Positions 20,764 to 45,039 of a stretch of DNA of 64,000 nucleotides are shown here, one piece after another. The notes under the pieces are model-generated. The model saw only the letters and a list, made by a program, of their open reading frames with translations. It was not told the origin of the DNA and did not search any database. The stretch is from Candidatus Iainarchaeum sp. (GTDB lineage: Archaea; Iainarchaeota; Iainarchaeia; Iainarchaeales; GCA-2688035), in the NCBI GenBank assembly GCA_017610205.1, contig JAFCCL010000003.1, forward strand, positions 1 through 64,000, written 5' to 3'. The translations under genes and the position numbers were made by a program. Positions within the stretch are counted from its first letter, which is position 1. Each line of letters opens with the position of its first letter.

Positions 20764-21305
20764 AAGTGGATATTTTAAAAGAGCTTGAAGAAAACCAAAC
20801 TATACTGCTTTTAATGCCTGGCACAGAATACAATGAAATAAGCATTAGCGTGGCAAAACAGCTGAGCGGAAAAACTGTTGGCTACATTACGCTGAACAAG
20901 ACTTTTCCGGCAATAATGGAAAACTTTGAGAAAAAAGGCATTGACACCAAAAACTTTGTTTTTGTTGACGCAATTACAAAAACAATTAAGGAAGCAGAGG
21001 ACACAGACCGCTGCTATTTTGTAAGCAGCCCCGGGGCATTGACTGAATTGGCAATAAAAATAAGCAAACTTTTGAAACACGACTTTGAGTATATGATTTT
21101 TGACAGCCTTACAAACCTTTTGGTTTACCAAAAAAAGGCACCTGTTGGCAAATTTATTTCAAACACTGTTGCAAGGGTAAAGGCAACAAAAAGCAAGGCA
21201 ATAGTCTATGCAATTAAGGTAAGAGAACAGGAAGCCTTGATACAGGAATCAAGCATGTTTGTTGACAGAGTAATTGACATGGGCAAGGCATACACGCCTG
21301 TTTAA
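20760..21305 (+). CDS. degenerate KaiC/RecA-like (DUF835-like) protein
   Basis: YITLNK, FVFVD, IFDSLTNL, VDRVI; no Walker A. Confidence 0.7.
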   Translation: MKVDILKELEENQTILLLMPGTEYNEISISVAKQLSGKTVGYITLNKTFPAIMENFEKKGIDTKNFVFVDAITKTIKEAEDTDRCYFVSSPGALTELAIKISKLLKHDFEYMIFDSLTNLLVYQKKAPVGKFISNTVARVKATKSKAIVYAIKVREQEALIQESSMFVDRVIDMGKAYTPV

Positions 21306-39332: not shown

Positions 39333-39908
39333 TTATAAATCTTTTCTTTGCTCTTTTCCAAGGCTTTTTATTTGCTTCAAAACCCCTTCCTTTGTTTCCT
39401 GAATGCTTGCCTTTGTGGTGTCAACCACTATATCGTAATTGCTTTCATTCAAGTAGTCGACATTGTAAAGCTTTAAATACCTGCCTTTATTCATTTCCAT
39501 TCTTTTCTGCATATTTTCAACAGTTTTCTGAACGCTTGCATTTTCTTCTCCGCATCTTTCCTTCTTGTCGCTGCAACTGTCCTTAAAAACGCGTTCAGCA
39601 GCCTTTTTCAAATCAATTTTTACAAAGATTTTTACAGACTTTGGAATAAAATGCCAGGAAAGCCTTCCGTCAATTACAAAATTGTCTTCCTCCAAACCAA
39701 GCTTTTTATTCCTTTCATCCAACTCACGGTCAACACTTTCGTCTTCTTCCATTAGCCTGTGCAATTCCATTACCGGCAGGTCTTTTTCTTTTGCAATCTG
39801 CCTAAGCAAGTCGCCAGCAGAATAATGCTTTAACCCAAGTGCCTTTGCAATTCCCTTTCCCAAAGTGCTTTTTCCAGAACCAGGATAGCCTGTAATAGTG
39901 ATAATCAT
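39333..39908 (-). CDS. cmk: cytidylate kinase (archaeal type)
   Basis: ITITGYPGSGKST, SAGDLLR, DGRLS. Confidence 0.88.
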   Translation of the reverse strand: MIITITGYPGSGKSTLGKGIAKALGLKHYSAGDLLRQIAKEKDLPVMELHRLMEEDESVDRELDERNKKLGLEEDNFVIDGRLSWHFIPKSVKIFVKIDLKKAAERVFKDSCSDKKERCGEENASVQKTVENMQKRMEMNKGRYLKLYNVDYLNESNYDIVVDTTKASIQETKEGVLKQIKSLGKEQRKDL

Positions 39909-39929
39909 TTAATCATCTGCATTGCTTTT

Positions 39930-40850
39930 TCATCTCAAATACTCTAAAGTATTCTGCCATATTCCTGGAGTTATTGCAGGGTCGTAATTGAAGTAAATTG
40001 CCTTTCCAACCAAAAGATTTTTTTCAACAATTCCAGGATAGTTTTTCGTGCCTAAAACACTGTTAATATATGCAACTTGATTCCCTAACGGCTTTACATC
40101 AAATGTTAAAATGCTTAAAGCCCCATATCTTGGGTCTGCCGGCGCTGTTTCAATTCCGTGCATTATTTCGCTGTCTGAGTCAAGCCTTTCAATTTTTCCG
40201 GAAACCATAACAGGCAGTGTGCAGGTAGGCATTCCTTGTATTCCTACATCGCATTCAACAGGAATTACGTCTCCAAATGTTTCCTTCCATCCAATTACGT
40301 CACTGGTAACACTTGTTCCAAATTCTCCGCCGCTTCTGTAAATTCCTGAGTCCATTACTACAACAAGCTTGCCCCCTGTCATAACATAGTTTTCAATTGC
40401 TTCACCCAAAGCTCTTGAAAGGCTTTTGTCATAAGGAGTTGCTCCCATATGTTGGTCAAGCAAAACAACATCAAATTCTGCAAGCTGTTCTGCAGGGTTT
40501 TCATCAAGGTCTGCTGCATCCTTTATTCTGTAATAAACCAAATCGTGCTGGTTGTCAAGGTCTGCAAGCAGGTCAACACTTGGGTTGCCTATGATAAGCA
40601 TTTGTGTTTGGCTGCTGCCTTCAAGCCCTGGAATTTCAATCATGCCAAGCTTGTTTAGCACCAAAATAAGCGGGGCGGAAAAAACAATCATTGCGCCTGC
40701 AACCCCAAGCACAACAATAATCGCAATTACAAGCCTTTTGTCAACCTTCCAAACAGGCTTTGCCCTTCCTTCGGGAATTCCTTCGTCTCCCGGGTATCCG
40801 CCTGCAACTCCTTTGTCTCCTGGAAATACTCCAGGCATTTCGTCATCCAT
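39930..40850 (-). CDS. membrane-anchored hypothetical protein (GATase-like fold possible)
   Basis: N-terminal TM; FDVVLL...YVMTGGKLVV motif. Confidence 0.6.
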   Translation of the reverse strand: MDDEMPGVFPGDKGVAGGYPGDEGIPEGRAKPVWKVDKRLVIAIIVVLGVAGAMIVFSAPLILVLNKLGMIEIPGLEGSSQTQMLIIGNPSVDLLADLDNQHDLVYYRIKDAADLDENPAEQLAEFDVVLLDQHMGATPYDKSLSRALGEAIENYVMTGGKLVVVMDSGIYRSGGEFGTSVTSDVIGWKETFGDVIPVECDVGIQGMPTCTLPVMVSGKIERLDSDSEIMHGIETAPADPRYGALSILTFDVKPLGNQVAYINSVLGTKNYPGIVEKNLLVGKAIYFNYDPAITPGIWQNTLEYLR

Positions 40851-41100
40851 GCATTAAAATACATGCTTTTGCGTTATAAATACTTTTTCATTTTTCGTAA
40901 CTGCTAACAGCCTCTGAGAATTGGCGTGTAATGCGTTTAATAGCTGATTTAATCGTGTCCTATTTTTTGTCCTATCCTGCTTTGTTTTTTCGTTTTTGTG
41001 TTCTTTTGTAAGTTAAACCACAAATTCAGCATTTTAGCTTTTGCAAGAAATTGAAAAACCGTTAGCAATTACCTTTTTTTCAGACCTTGTAAAAATGGCT

Positions 41101-41135
41101 AATAGCCTGATGTATTCAGGGTAATATAGCTTTTT
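41101..41135 (+). repeat. intergenic repeat R1 (3' half only)
   Basis: AATAGCCTGATGTATTCAGGGTAATATAGCTTTTT. Confidence 0.8.
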
Positions 41136-41194
41136 ACCTCATCAAAACTAAGAATTGTTATAAGTTTTAATAACCTTGGTGATTTGATTTTAGT

Positions 41195-41821
41195 ATGAAA
41201 TTTTATTTGTCCTCTTTTAGATTGGGGAGCAAAGCGAGTGAGTTAGTCAGATTAATGTCCAACAATAAAAAAATTGCCTATATTCCAAATGCAGGTGATT
41301 TTTCTAATAGGGATTATGCTAAGAAAAGCAATTGGGAAAAAATAGATATTAAAAGTTTAGAAAAACTTGGTTTAATTGTGGAATATCTTGATTTAAAGAA
41401 TTTTTTTTTTGGCAGGACTGATGAATTACGAAAAAAATTGAATGAGTTTGGTGGAGTGTTTGTAAGGGGGAGCAACACTTTTATTTTAAGGCAAGCAATG
41501 AAATTGAGTGGTTTTGATATACTCTTCAAAGAGCTTCTTAAAAGAGATGATTTTGTGTATGCAGGGTATAGTGCAGGCATATGTGTATTGGTTCCAGATC
41601 TCAAAGGCCTGCAACTTGTTGACAATCCCAAGGATAAACCCTACAAAGAGCTTCAAAAAACAATTTGGGAAGGTCTTGGATTCCTTGATTGCATTATTCT
41701 CCCGCACTATAAATCCAACCATCCTGAGTCGGCAGACATTGACAAAGAAGTTGAATATTGCAATAAAAACAATATTCCGTTTAAAACTCTGAGAGACGGC
41801 GAAGTAATACTTATCGAATAA
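41195..41821 (+). CDS. peptidase S51 (dipeptidase E-like)
   Basis: YIPNA, VRGSNTFIL, GYSAG, PHY. Confidence 0.85.
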   Translation: MKFYLSSFRLGSKASELVRLMSNNKKIAYIPNAGDFSNRDYAKKSNWEKIDIKSLEKLGLIVEYLDLKNFFFGRTDELRKKLNEFGGVFVRGSNTFILRQAMKLSGFDILFKELLKRDDFVYAGYSAGICVLVPDLKGLQLVDNPKDKPYKELQKTIWEGLGFLDCIILPHYKSNHPESADIDKEVEYCNKNNIPFKTLRDGEVILIE

Positions 41822-41896
41822 ATAGCTAATTTTGAAGCTCTAAGGTAAACTTGTAGCAATGTCAATTCTTTAAACCCCATTGCATTCTAATTCTTT

Positions 41897-41952
41897 TGCC
41901 AATGATTATCTGACAATTAGCCTGATGTTATCAGGGTAATATGCTTTTTTTT
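41897..41952 (+). repeat. intergenic repeat R2 (full)
   Basis: TGCCAATGATTATCTGACAATTAGCCTGATGTTATCAGGGTAATATGC-T8. Confidence 0.85.
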
Positions 41953-41967
41953 ATTGTTTCAATTAGT

Positions 41968-42135
41968 CTACTTATTTATCAGTTTATTTTGCTGTCTGCT
42001 CCATTCCTTGTTTGGTGTCTTTTTTACCCATTCCGCATACATGTTGATAAATTCCATGCGTTGTTGCCTGTTTCTTTCCTTTTCTTCTTCAAGTTCTTTC
42101 AGGTCTTTTTCTGTTAACTTTAATCCTTTTTCCAT
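41968..42135 (-). CDS. 55-aa partner of nucleotidyltransferase (not in ORF track)
   Basis: MEKGLKL...RMEFINMYAEWVKKTPNKEWSRQQNKLINK; overlaps upstream gene end. Confidence 0.7.
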   Translation of the reverse strand: MEKGLKLTEKDLKELEEEKERNRQQRMEFINMYAEWVKKTPNKEWSRQQNKLINK

Positions 42136-42731
42136 AAAACCTTCTCCGCCTGTTTTTCAACTCTCAGTTCGCTAATCTGCCTTTTCAATAAACTTATGTC
42201 CAAATGTTCTTTAAAAACCTTATAGAGGTATCTTGCGTCTTCAAAATCTTTGTCAGAGCCAAGATTCAACTTGAAGGCTATTTGCAGTTCAATTTCTGAC
42301 ATCCATAATTTTTCTTTTCCAAGAATCACCTGTATTTTATTTTTCAAGGAATAGGCATTGTATTTGCTTTTTGGAAACTTTAATTCAAAGTTTGGAATGA
42401 ACGTGCCTTTTTCTGCAAATCTCAGTGCAAGCTTTTCTTTTAGGTAGTCATTGAAAGCTCTTTCAGGGCTTGTTTCATTGAGGCATTCAAATTCTTCTTT
42501 TTCAAGTGCAACCCAAAATCTTTTGAATTTCTCAAAACTCGTCTCTTCAATGAACAAATCAACATCCTCTGTATTCCTGCTCCTGCCAAAAAGAATTGCA
42601 ATATATCCTGAAATTATCACATAGTCTATTTCAACTTTATCAAGAATTTTTACAAATTTTATTACAAGCTTATCTAAATCAGAGAGTTCCCGCTCAAATT
42701 TAATCTGGCTCTTATTGAATTCAAATTCCAT
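42120..42731 (-). CDS. nucleotidyltransferase-like protein (putative TA/Abi component)
   Basis: YVIISGY...GRSRNTEDVD...KL..GSDKDFEDA. Confidence 0.75.
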   Translation of the reverse strand: MEFEFNKSQIKFERELSDLDKLVIKFVKILDKVEIDYVIISGYIAILFGRSRNTEDVDLFIEETSFEKFKRFWVALEKEEFECLNETSPERAFNDYLKEKLALRFAEKGTFIPNFELKFPKSKYNAYSLKNKIQVILGKEKLWMSEIELQIAFKLNLGSDKDFEDARYLYKVFKEHLDISLLKRQISELRVEKQAEKVLWKKD

Positions 42732-42783
42732 ATAAAAAAAGTAAACCAAACTTAATTTAACTATTTATATGGCTTATACTTAC

Positions 42784-42841
42784 TGCCAATGATAATCTGA
42801 TAATTACACTGAGTGCAGTCAGGGTAATATGGCTTTTTTTT
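42784..42841 (+). repeat. intergenic repeat R3 (full)
   Basis: TGCCAATGATAATCTGATAATTACACTGAGTGCAGTCAGGGTAATATGGC-T8. Confidence 0.85.
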
Positions 42842-42847
42842 GTTGTT

Positions 42848-43120
42848 TCAGAAAAACTGTTTGTACCATTTTTCGTATTCTTTATGTTTTCCAATGAAGT
42901 AAAAGCGAACTTCTTTGTTTTCTTCAAAAGTTCTGTAAATGATTCTGTTTTGGCCTATTTCATCAACAAAGAATTTTGCGCCTTTCTTGAGGTGTCTTTT
43001 TTCTGGAAATTCAATGATTTTTTTTATCTTTTTTGCAACGCGTTCTTTGGTTGTATTTTCTAAACAGTTAAAGTATTCTCGCCATTTTTCGTCAAAGGAT
43101 TCTTTGTAAATGCTAATCAC
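42848..43120 (-). CDS. RelE/ParE-like toxin
   Basis: 90 aa, RHLK...IGQNRIIY...FIGKHKEYEKWY. Confidence 0.75.
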   Translation of the reverse strand: MISIYKESFDEKWREYFNCLENTTKERVAKKIKKIIEFPEKRHLKKGAKFFVDEIGQNRIIYRTFEENKEVRFYFIGKHKEYEKWYKQFF

Positions 43121-43359
43121 TTCAAATGCTTTGCGTATTCACCCAGAGCCTGGTCTGCGTTGAGAATTTTTCTCTTGCCTGCTTCAATGTCCTGGTCTAT
43201 TCTGTCAAGTTTTTTGTTGACAAGTTCAGCTTCATTGAAATGCTCTTCTCCAAATTGAACTATTGCCAGTCTTGCAGCTTCGGATTGGGTGTTTGCATAA
43301 CCTTTTTCAACCATGCTCTCTAGTATCTGTTTCGTTCGTCCTCTAAAATCTACATTCAT
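43117..43359 (-). CDS. RHH antitoxin
   Basis: MNVDF...MVEKGYANTQSEAARLAI; GTGA overlap with toxin. Confidence 0.75.
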   Translation of the reverse strand: MNVDFRGRTKQILESMVEKGYANTQSEAARLAIVQFGEEHFNEAELVNKKLDRIDQDIEAGKRKILNADQALGEYAKHLK

Positions 43360-43538
43360 ATAAAATCACCTACAAAATACGGTGTGATATATGTATGACA
43401 TATGATTTAAATATGTTTCTATTTGAATCGTGTTTGAACCAGATTTTATCGGTATCTTACCCTGCCATTAACTGCAGTGCCAAATGATGCGTACTTACAA
43501 CTCTATTCTTTAAACCATTTTGGATTATTCTTAATACT

Positions 43539-43577
43539 TGCCGATGATGATTTGACAATTACACTGAGTGCAAGTCA
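43539..43577 (+). repeat. intergenic repeat R4 (5' half only)
   Basis: TGCCGATGATGATTTGACAATTACACTGAGTGCAAGTCA. Confidence 0.8.
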
Positions 43578-43687
43578 AACTCCTATTTTAGGCTTATTTA
43601 TAACGGTTTTTGCATAGTTTGTTTTGCAAAAATCCTTTCCAAATCTTTAAATAATACCTTCTTCTTTATTTTATTTGGTTTTTTTAA

Positions 43688-44968
43688 ATGCCGAACAAAG
43701 CTTACTCTGGATATCTTAATCCAAAATATGTTCCAAAAGCAGATCTTATTGCTGCCTTTTACTTAGAGCCAGCTGCACGCGTTTCGTTTGAAGAAGCGGC
43801 ACAGGCTGTTGCGTCAGAATCAAGCATTGGAACCTGGACAAATCTTGCAACTCTCTCCAAGAAAATGAAGCGCAGGCTTCACGCCAGAGTTTTTTCATTG
43901 AACAAGGGAACAGGAATTGTAAAAATTGCTTACCCCCTTTCCTTGTTTGAAAACGGAAGCATTCCCCAGCTTTTGAGTAGCATTGCAGGCAATATTTTTG
44001 GAATGAAGGAAATCAGAAATCTGAGGCTGCTTGACATAAACTTTCCAAACCGCTACATTCGCTCGTTTAAGGGTCCAGCTTTTGGCATTTCTGGCGTGAG
44101 AAGAACTCTTAAAATTCCAAAAAGGCCTTTGATTGGAACAATTATAAAGCCAAAGCTTGGTTTGAATGAAAGGCAGCATGCAAACACCGCTTTTCAGGCC
44201 TGGCTTGGAGGCTGTGATATTGTAAAAGACGATGAAAATTTGACAAATATGCGTTTTAACCATTTTGACAAAAGGGCAAGGCAAACTTTAAAGCTTAGGG
44301 ACAAGGCTGAAGCAATTTCTGGAGAGCGAAAGGCCTACATGCCAAATGTTACTGCTCCATTTGCAGAAATGGTAAAGCGTGCAAAGTTTGCAAAACAGCT
44401 GGGTTGTGAATATGCAATGGTTGACGTGCTTTCGGTTGGATGGTCTGCTTTGCAGGATTTGAGGGATGAAGATTTGGGTCTAATTCTTCACGCCCACAGA
44501 GCAGGACACGCTGCATTTACCAGTTCAGCAAAACATGGCATTAGCATGCTTGTAATTGCAAAGCTTTGCCGCTTAATTGGAGTGGACCAGCTTCACGTTG
44601 GTGCAATTGTTGGAAAAATGCATGGTGAAAAAAAAGAAGTAAAGGCAATTGGAGAAGAAATTGAGGACACGATTATTTACAAAGGAAAAGGGCACGTGCT
44701 TTCAGAAAACTGGCTTAACCTAAAACCTGTTTTTGCAGTTTGCTCGGGTGGCCTGCACCCTGGAAAAATTCCTGCTTTGGTAAAAGCCATGGGTAATGAC
44801 ATAATTATTCAATTGGGTGGAGGCATTCACGGACATCCTTTGGGAACAAGGCATGGAGCAATTGCCGCAAGACAGGCATTGGATGCAACAGTGGATGGCA
44901 TTTCATTAAAGTATGCGGCAATGAAAGAATTTGAACTGGCACTTGCTTTAAGGAAATGGAAAAATTGA
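43688..44968 (+). CDS. rbcL: RuBisCO large subunit, form III
   Basis: ESSIGTW, IIKPKLGL, DIVKDDE, HAHRAGH, VGKM, SGGLHP, GGGIHGHP. Confidence 0.95.
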   Translation: MPNKAYSGYLNPKYVPKADLIAAFYLEPAARVSFEEAAQAVASESSIGTWTNLATLSKKMKRRLHARVFSLNKGTGIVKIAYPLSLFENGSIPQLLSSIAGNIFGMKEIRNLRLLDINFPNRYIRSFKGPAFGISGVRRTLKIPKRPLIGTIIKPKLGLNERQHANTAFQAWLGGCDIVKDDENLTNMRFNHFDKRARQTLKLRDKAEAISGERKAYMPNVTAPFAEMVKRAKFAKQLGCEYAMVDVLSVGWSALQDLRDEDLGLILHAHRAGHAAFTSSAKHGISMLVIAKLCRLIGVDQLHVGAIVGKMHGEKKEVKAIGEEIEDTIIYKGKGHVLSENWLNLKPVFAVCSGGLHPGKIPALVKAMGNDIIIQLGGGIHGHPLGTRHGAIAARQALDATVDGISLKYAAMKEFELALALRKWKN

Positions 44969-45039
44969 CATAGAATTCAAAGGAATATTTCAAGTTCCAA
45001 AAACAACAGAAAGCTATTTAATGTCTTTTTACCCCTTTT

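Follow-up and report, generated by a model that had tools for sequence, protein, structure and literature searches.

Upstream of rbcL, the gene for the large subunit of RuBisCO, the archaeon Candidatus Iainarchaeum sp. carries three small groups of genes that are separated by copies of a repeat with a core of about 55 bp. This arrangement raises the question of how these genes came to lie there and what the repeats at their borders are. We addressed it in a stretch of 64,000 nucleotides (assembly GCA_017610205.1, contig JAFCCL010000003.1, positions 1 to 64,000 of the forward strand), hereafter the window, and in related genomes. We find that the gene groups are mobile cassettes and that the four repeat copies, R1 to R4, are modules which, judged by their sequence, are paralogs of a C/D box methylation-guide small RNA (sRNA) gene. 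In the reading that we favour, and to which we give about an even chance, R1 to R4 are portable junction modules between the cassettes that would be exchanged at a hairpin by an enzyme acting in trans. In the following, G000 denotes the genome analysed (a 1.37-Mb assembly), G codes stand for the genomes of the order (n = 151) and L codes for loci, with L099 being a metagenome contig.

A sequence-only reading of the window had described four related intergenic sequences in the same orientation, and our searches recover all four on the plus strand. Together with their promoter-like elements, they are laid out as follows.

41082-41136, plus strand: R1, the left-terminal module copy (profile E-value 2.7e-6; 34.8 bits with the covariance model, model positions 1-55)
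41869-41874, plus strand: TTTAAA, a TATA-like box 28 nt upstream of R2
41897-41952, plus strand: R2, a full module (profile E-value 2.5e-18; covariance model 80.1 bits)
42755-42762, plus strand: AATTTAAC, a promoter-like variant upstream of R3
42784-42841, plus strand: R3, a full module with hairpin (42803-42828) and T8 run (covariance model 62.5 bits)
43509-43514, plus strand: TTTAAA, a TATA-like box 30 nt upstream of R4
43539-43600, plus strand: R4, the right-terminal copy, a degenerate paralog of the C/D box sRNA gene described below

The 5′ motif of the repeat has three matches in the window with none expected, and at least three matches occurred in none of 100 shuffles. For the 3′ motif we found four matches with 0.19 expected, and at least four in 0 of 100 shuffles; these are R1 to R3 and one match with two mismatches at 20881. 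The latter (20881-20895, minus strand) has no other module features and was taken as chance. A nucleotide profile built from four full copies and run over the whole G000 assembly (nhmmer) recovers R1 to R4 at E-values of 2.5e-18 to 1e-5 and places the module at only four loci of this genome, on contigs C17, C10, C19 and C12, each of which carries cassettes. An Rfam scan by E-value of positions 40000-45000 matched none of the repeats, and its six weak matches elsewhere all lay far under the gathering scores.

We aligned the module first from 16 full copies of four genomes and then from 38 copies of 15 genomes and one metagenome contig, the second time with a covariance model that is itself named R1. 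Including its promoter, the module forms a unit of about 100 bp. A TATA-like hexamer stands at -36 to -22 in 24 of the 38 sites, compared with 110 of 2000 random positions, and (T)GCC with a box-C-like GATGATGA opens 30 of them (ATGATGA with at most one mismatch within the first 14 nt). Box C is followed by W-CTGAC-AATTA and a hairpin of five plus four pairs with a loop of 5-7 nt; the module ends in TAATAT(A), directly followed by a run of at least five T in 24 of the 38 copies. R2 shows this layout in full, with a box-C-like AATGATTA, CTGACAATTA, the hairpin at 41916-41940, TAATAT and a T8 run. The core variants R1/R2 and R3/R4, noticed early on, are real: R3 and R4, which both flank the RelE-like cassette described below, have 16 identical nucleotides in common, AATTACACTGAGTGCA, covering the left arm and the loop.

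In the 38-copy alignment, which had been fitted to the covariance model, 91.9% of the hairpin cells are paired and five of the nine pairs show compensatory changes (21 cells), a level reached in none of 500 shuffles; controls slid along the alignment paired at 28-59%. The folding energy of single copies is modest for R1 (z -3.09) and R2 (z -2.50) and unremarkable for R3 (z 0.23) and R4 (z -0.43). Arms of the types CCTGA/TCAGG and CCAGA/TCTGG stand together in one array of G005, and distant genomes employ GACGCTGA/TCAGCGTC, CTAGA/TCTAG and ATAGA/TCTAT. This mixture of arm variants within a single array favours recognition by shape and not by arm sequence. Two inverted repeats had been proposed for each full copy. 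One of them stands, as this hairpin, and the other is not supported: the alternative, in which the first CTGA element would pair with the right arm of the hairpin, shows no covariation above shuffles.

The origin of the module is suggested by a genuine C/D box sRNA gene outside the window (G000 contig C10:63250-63316, minus strand), which has boxes C, D′, C′ and D as well as a GCC/GGC stem and is conserved across the order (orthologues at L044:11460, L045:1536, L078:3110, L082:3765, L099:2329 and L094:1505-1560). The genuine copy opens like the module, sharing with it the promoter, TGCCGATGATGA and CTGAC, and continues with the guide CTGACGATGAC, D′, a GCGCAAG loop, C′, the guide AGATGGGCGGA, box D (CUGA) and the closing GGC. 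The module retains the promoter, box C and the beginning of the guide, and its 3′ half is a hairpin of 9-11 bp followed by TAATAT; it has neither a C′ box nor a 3′ CUGA (box D) and ends in the hairpin and UAAUAU. Because the G000 assembly yielded no ribosomal RNA (rRNA) genes, guide targets were tested in G038 and G037. The D′ guide of the sRNA is complementary to the small-subunit (SSU) rRNA at 11 of 11 positions in both genomes. Its D guide had no exact target in five genomes besides the sRNA gene itself, and the guide-like 11-mer of the module had no match with at most one mismatch in the SSU and partial large-subunit rRNA of G038 and G037.

Arrays of modules and cassettes terminate rightward in a copy of this sRNA gene. 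That copy is genuine at what we call the primary locus, between an ABC-F gene and the sRNA, in G000, G003, G004, G008, G047 and L099, and is decayed at the other loci: the right-hand copy on C12 has its 3′ tail in common with R4, and the one at the locus named after NAC retains traces of the second guide. R4 itself comprises box C (GATGATGA), a guide-like stretch, CTGA, a GTGCAAG loop and a decayed 3′ part. At the corresponding position upstream of rbcL, the orthologue in G004 reads CTGACGATGATTCGGAGTGCAAG, like the sRNA of G038, and retains the sRNA-type guide CTGACGATGAT; R4 of G000 reads GACAATTACACTGAGTGCAAG. R4 had been described as the bare 5′ half of the repeat. Its 5′ 36-40 nt are indeed present, but their source is a decayed copy of the genuine sRNA gene. 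The claim that R1 is a bare 3′ half was mistaken, as R1 has the whole hairpin (arms 41100-41110 and 41116-41125, loop TGTAT) and a degenerate 5′ part without box C, and the model aligns to it end to end over 41082-41136; its T run is short (T5).

Given its homology to an sRNA gene and its own promoter, the module is probably transcribed and hence a transcription unit. After manual curation, which dropped three sites without a credible gene, a T run of at least six comes after the module at 12 of 19 sites whose next cassette is antisense, compared with 3 of 18 whose next cassette is sense; an automatic tally gave 10/20 and 5/19, and the contrast is confounded by phylogeny, with the sense cases mostly in other families. 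Since the long T run mainly precedes antisense cassettes, this pattern suggests that the module promoter reads through into sense cassettes and supplies them with a 55-nt leader.

We next turn to the genes between the modules, which at the CMP-kinase/rbcL locus of the window are arranged as follows.

39333-39908, minus strand: CMP kinase gene, the left chromosomal flank (PF13189/PF02224)
39930-40850, minus strand: gene for a 306-aa protein (hyp306) without a Pfam or NCBIfam match
41195-41821, plus strand, the same as the modules: cassette 1, S51 peptidase (PF03575, 1.8e-20)
41968-42135, minus strand: cassette 2, gene b, a 55-aa protein
42120-42731, minus strand: cassette 2, gene a, a DUF2204-type nucleotidyltransferase (PF09970, 21.7 bits with a cut-off of 20.3)
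42848-43120, minus strand: cassette 3, toxin gene, a 90-aa RelE/ParE-like protein
43117-43359, minus strand: cassette 3, an antitoxin-like 80-aa protein whose gene overlaps the toxin gene by 4 nt
43688-44968, plus strand: rbcL, the right chromosomal flank

The Pfam match confirms the S51 peptidase that had been recognised from the letters alone. The presumed nucleotidyltransferase pair contains one such enzyme, of the DUF2204 type; its partner is no second transferase but the 55-aa protein, which is always found beside a DUF2204 gene and co-occurs with it on C41 and C76 of G004. The DUF2204 gene likely starts at the ATG at 42731-42729 (MEFEF...), in agreement with the homologues of G004. The RelE-like protein was also borne out, by a first match in Atlas with a score of 0.96 and by weak similarity over its full length to chains of RelE (E 0.08). 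No family in Pfam or NCBIfam matched the 80-aa antitoxin-like protein.

Across the order, the module is present in 16 of the 151 genomes, distributed over 10 families. A strict pattern of 38-42 nt found five stretches across the species genomes and was too stringent for defining this range. A metagenome search with a 25-mer of the site gave one match, L099, and a search with a 31-mer from upstream of rbcL gave none. The cassettes measure about 0.6-2.6 kb and mostly hold toxin-antitoxin pairs; others carry the S51 peptidase, a nucleotidyltransferase, transporters or lipoproteins. Their proteins were classified as PIN, RelE-like, NYN, DUF2204, S51, DUF5680, MntP, lipoprotein-like or unassigned, with no recombinase among them. 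Contig C41 of G004 is a single array with five modules.

At three loci, the genes between the modules proved variable. For the rbcL locus we fetched ten relatives and compared them by tblastn synteny. CMP kinase and rbcL are adjacent in five of them, about 70-95 bp apart, and four contain other inserts without any site. G004 carries, in this order, hyp306, a module, the same RelE-like pair as G000, a module, a DUF5680 gene with a PIN pair, and the orthologue of R4; this PIN pair sits on C10 in G000. The gene content upstream of rbcL thus varies, as had been proposed for testing. At the NAC locus, compared in 21 relatives, the two convergent flanking genes are at most ~110 bp apart in 13 of these (16 bp in G002), and the locus holds a PIN pair in G000 and two nucleotidyltransferase cassettes in G004. 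The content of the primary locus is different in five of the five sequences compared: a PIN pair and a 493-aa gene in G000, MntP and an S51 peptidase in G003, a PIN-like and a RelE-like gene in G004, a pair of 92 and 101 aa in G005, and only a cassette remnant of 125 bp in L099.

Identical cassette types therefore occupy different loci in different species, and they are also more similar between species than the chromosome around them. Nucleotide identity between G000 and G004 reaches 94.9% and 95.5% for the toxin and antitoxin-like genes of the RelE-like pair; among the PIN cassettes, identity between species is 92.5%/91.4% for the PIN136 pair and 89.8%/89.2% for the PIN146 pair. The S51 cassette, which in G003 adjoins the genuine sRNA, has 93.6% identity between G000 and G003. 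Seven core or flanking genes (KaiC, CMP kinase, hyp306, rbcL, NAD synthase, ABC-F and a 405-aa gene) range from 68.0% to 87.3% against G004, and rbcL and ABC-F reach 77.0% and 81.5% against G003. Among the core genes NAC is an exception with 89.5%, and the nucleotidyltransferase copies, which are probably paralogs, share 75.6%. Mobility of the cassettes between loci and between species is thus well supported.

Several further observations concern these loci. As hyp306 is present at the rbcL locus only in G000 and G004 (80.7% nucleotide identity) among the loci of the ten relatives, we count it with the inserted block, perhaps as another cassette whose left module has been lost. The inserts of G001, G005, G013 and G015 at this locus have no site even with filters switched off (best 7.8 bits), and the site-free inserts (L018, L036, L038, L040) comprise a 233-aa gene, a zinc-ribbon-like gene of 74-82 aa, a 4.9-kb block with a putative methylase and a 266-aa gene. 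The intergenic region between CMP kinase and rbcL (39909-43687 of the window) is a general insertion hot spot. The fourth cassette locus of G000 (C12:904-2310, L001) contains an NYN-domain gene and three overlapping short open reading frames resembling a frameshifted gene. Finally, the ABC-F ATPase gene is flanked by module copies at L079 (G033) and L044 (G004). Since these two genomes belong to different families, the ABC-F gene may be a former cassette or may behave like one.

With the mobility of the cassettes at hand, we asked where the exchange takes place. The cassette to the left of a module keeps the promoter and spacer, and the one to the right keeps the T run and the sequence beyond it, which confines the exchange to ~40 bp including the hairpin. 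The variant AATTTAAC, for instance, accompanies the DUF2204 cassettes in four of the four copies whose right side was available. For the S51 cassettes of G000 and G003, the block of identity runs from the left hairpin arm (TAGCCTGATGT) to immediately ahead of the following TATA box. Furthermore, cassette-type sequence gives way to sRNA-type sequence in R4 of G000 at CTGA/GTGCAAG, a point at which the partners have only microhomology in common, and the G004 orthologue of R4 keeps the ancestral form. Loop sequences matched across the two sides of a cassette in about 5 of 12 cassettes, which is not decisive because TGTGC is common.

In the mechanism that we favour, cassettes would be exchanged by recombination inside the module, and a free cassette would be a circle with one complete module. 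Landing pads would be the genuine sRNA gene downstream of ABC-F, at the primary locus, and its decayed copies elsewhere, including the one upstream of rbcL. Strand exchange would occur at the hairpin, whose stem-loop-stem layout is like the core site of a tyrosine recombinase, and the enzyme in trans would recognise it by shape rather than by sequence. A bolder proposal, an independent integron-like capture system of DPANN archaea, would use the folded, domesticated half-gene of a C/D box sRNA as its site and the housekeeping XerA or a so far unrecognised enzyme in trans, rebuild the sRNA gene on insertion from the promoter and 5′ half brought by each circular cassette, and offer sense cassettes a portable promoter and leader. 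We regard this as rather unlikely.

As for the enzyme, the recombinases of G000 are XerA, three integrases of 396-455 aa and one pseudogene. XerA passes NF040815 (275.7 bits, cut-off 220) and stays below the cut-off of TIGR02249 (227 bits, cut-off 265), on which the 396-aa integrase scores 54.5 bits; no integron integrase (IntI) was found among the two G000 recombinases scanned, XerA and one of the three larger integrases. The family of the 396-aa integrase occurs in 72 of the 151 genomes and is not linked to those carrying the site. In G038 (complete, one site) and in G003 (two cassettes), the only PF00589 matches are of the XerA type. XerA is the only ubiquitous candidate and could be the enzyme acting in trans. 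A serine recombinase (PF00239) was considered and rejected, being found in one of five array-bearing genomes and there as a broken gene.

A number of observations weigh against exchange at the hairpin by a dedicated enzyme. No recombinase, and in particular no PF00589 gene, is adjacent to any array examined, in line with the sequence-only reading, and the family of the 396-aa integrase was not found (E ≤ 1e-20) in the site-positive genomes G003, G004, G030, G033, G034 and G038. Between G000 and G004, the RelE-like cassette is ~95% alike but its neighbouring modules only ~75%, and the ~100 bp upstream of its right-hand module are only ~65% alike. For this cassette and the PIN146 cassette, the blocks of high identity end at the T run or stop codon on one side and at or before the TATA box on the other, not at the hairpin; block ends of this kind would be no less expected from gene conversion or homologous exchange. 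The PIN146 cassette of G004 has no module on its left. Covariation of the hairpin, drawn from the model-fitted alignment, falls to a single pair within the family alone, and together with the promoter at a fixed distance it could serve an RNA function alone. The pattern of half-sites outside and full sites at the junctions, from which capture of cassettes had been argued, also loses force because R1 is a degenerate full copy and R4 a decayed sRNA gene. Of the earlier interpretation as a whole, the mobile cassettes, the confinement of the repeat to cassette loci, its difference from attC and the lack of an adjacent recombinase have held, and the half-site argument for site-specific capture has weakened.

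The strongest rival draws on the same observations. The module might be a dispersed family of small RNAs or promoter-leaders, and homologous recombination or gene conversion between these repeats of 55-100 bp might move the cassettes: a circle would loop out between two direct copies and re-enter at any copy, without a dedicated recombinase. For most of the pattern, this rival is as good an explanation as a dedicated recombinase. It accounts for arrays without a linked recombinase and for identity blocks that stop at promoter or T run, and it agrees with the differences between the modules of the same cassette in different genomes, which look as if locally converted. Every secondary locus has a decayed sRNA copy that could give homology, and a promoter or leader role is suggested by the conserved box positions and the T-run bias described above. 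However, the longest perfect-match blocks between modules are short (~25-29 nt), the R4 junction of G000 lies at mere microhomology, and the left-end copies R1 and C19_a lack most of the homologous 5′ half. The covarying arms and the limitation of exchange to ~40 bp around the hairpin also speak against it. We judge this rival to be a serious possibility, with a probability well short of even.

Alternatively, the cassettes might be non-autonomous elements transposing as single strands (PATE/REP-like) and mobilised in trans by the hairpin-recognising Y1 (HUH) transposases of the IS200/IS605 type. The hairpin is conserved by shape, and such transposases (PF01797) have seven matches in G000, five in G004 and three in G005; of the genomes with the site, 9 of 16 have a match, and of those without it 35 of 135, a weak enrichment among related and thus non-independent genomes. 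The seven matches of G000 lie outside the window on C3, C5, C10, C16 and C19, none near a cassette array. Conversely, the module profile (nhmmer --max, E up to 10) has no match near these genes, with coordinates compared by eye. PF01797 found no match in the cassette-bearing G003 and G008 (each 81% complete), nor in the complete G038, which has a single site and no cassette. With one hairpin per junction instead of one per cassette end, and no conserved tetranucleotide target seen, this explanation appears improbable.

That the locus is a canonical integron array without an integrase (CALIN) we consider highly improbable. Tandem short cassettes separated by structured sites of ~55 bp do resemble such an array, and toxin-antitoxin cassettes stand inverted here, as they do in the superintegrons of Vibrio. 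None of the 38 sites, however, contains RYYYAAC or GTTRRRY on either strand, in agreement with the earlier observation that attC-type ends are missing. Exchange would fall inside or left of the hairpin and not 6 nt from the 3′ end of the site, the two recombinases tested include no integron integrase, and the sites carry promoters. Archaeal CALINs are known, and the archaeal integrons published to date were detected with bacterial attC models (Ghaly et al. 2022, PMC9668308).

Equally remote is the idea that the repeats are ordinary terminators or serve regulation next to syntenic genes that are fixed and do not move, which the hairpins and T runs of R2 and R3 would suit, but the genes between the repeats differ among congeners, the loci are empty in others, the repeat is restricted to four loci instead of being spread genome-wide, and the downstream genes mostly face the opposite way.

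Gene-cassette platforms are known mainly as bacterial integrons. Here, a site derived from an sRNA gene bounds cassettes that move between loci and species of small-genome (DPANN) archaea, and the whole has the look of a system for shuffling cassettes that has no relation to the integrons of bacteria. Should the exchange prove specific to a site or structure, cassette capture would have been invented independently here, with an sRNA gene newly used as an attachment site. If it is driven by homology, a dispersed sRNA/promoter module would organise the flux of accessory genes in reduced genomes. Either way, the covariance model is a searchable marker for hot spots of accessory genes in these archaea.

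How does the module compare with known systems? We found nothing in the literature on cassette arrays bounded by sRNA-like sequences or on sRNA genes as attachment sites, a search that left supplements and subscription literature uncovered. PATE/REP elements derived from IS200/IS605 differ in that they need a subterminal hairpin at each end and a Y1 transposase matching these hairpins, whereas the module is present once per junction.

Xer-dependent modules are known from IMEX elements at dif and from the pdif modules of Acinetobacter plasmids, which alternate in orientation. Like these, cassettes without a recombinase of their own could use the housekeeping tyrosine recombinase of the host, and XerA is the sole PF00589 protein found in G038 and G003. 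A Xer/dif-type site has two inverted arms of ~11 bp around a 6-bp spacer; the module presents AATTAGCCTGA and TCAGGGTAAT(A) around a loop of 5-7 nt, but with arms that vary between copies. In contrast to Xer modules, the sites are all in direct orientation and their arms vary with compensatory changes. Furthermore, they stand at four loci of G000, unlike dif, of which a chromosome has one near the terminus, and this speaks against the module being dif itself.

A precedent for decayed sRNA copies that seed new loci comes from Pyrobaculum, whose C/D box sRNA genes duplicate, transpose, become circularly permuted and yield MITE-like repeats (Lui et al. 2018, PMC6009581); the accessible part of that paper describes neither protein-coding cassettes nor arrays. 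Integration of archaeal and bacterial elements into tRNA genes offers a second parallel. According to a review (PMC8371274), anticodon stem-loops resemble the core sites of tyrosine recombinases. There, as in our favoured reading of the module, the landing pad is the gene of a small stable RNA with a stem-loop laid out like such a core, incoming DNA brings a partial gene copy so that the RNA gene re-forms at one end, and tandem insertions build up. The module differs in that the RNA gene is one for a C/D box sRNA, the cassettes of 0.6-2.6 kb come without an integrase, and the module supplies the promoter and the 5′ half rather than the 3′ end.

In overall architecture, the arrays resemble integrons and CALINs, in which small cassettes, often toxin-antitoxin pairs, are also arranged in tandem between short structured sites that are similar within a genome. 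In both, the inner stem of the site is kept by pairing and not by sequence, as far as the model-fitted alignment of the module hairpin indicates, cassettes are common to several species, and an adjacent recombinase is not needed. Conversely, the modules have no R″ or R′ boxes (0/38), and no IntI occurs among the G000 recombinases tested. The crossover of attC, between the G and TT of R′, leaves nearly the whole site at the 3′ end of a cassette, whereas the promoter and 5′ half of the module stay with the upstream cassette and the hairpin and T run with the downstream one. Each module moreover carries a promoter and the box-C-like 5′ half of an sRNA, most cassettes are antisense to the modules, and several small arrays are set up at separate loci.

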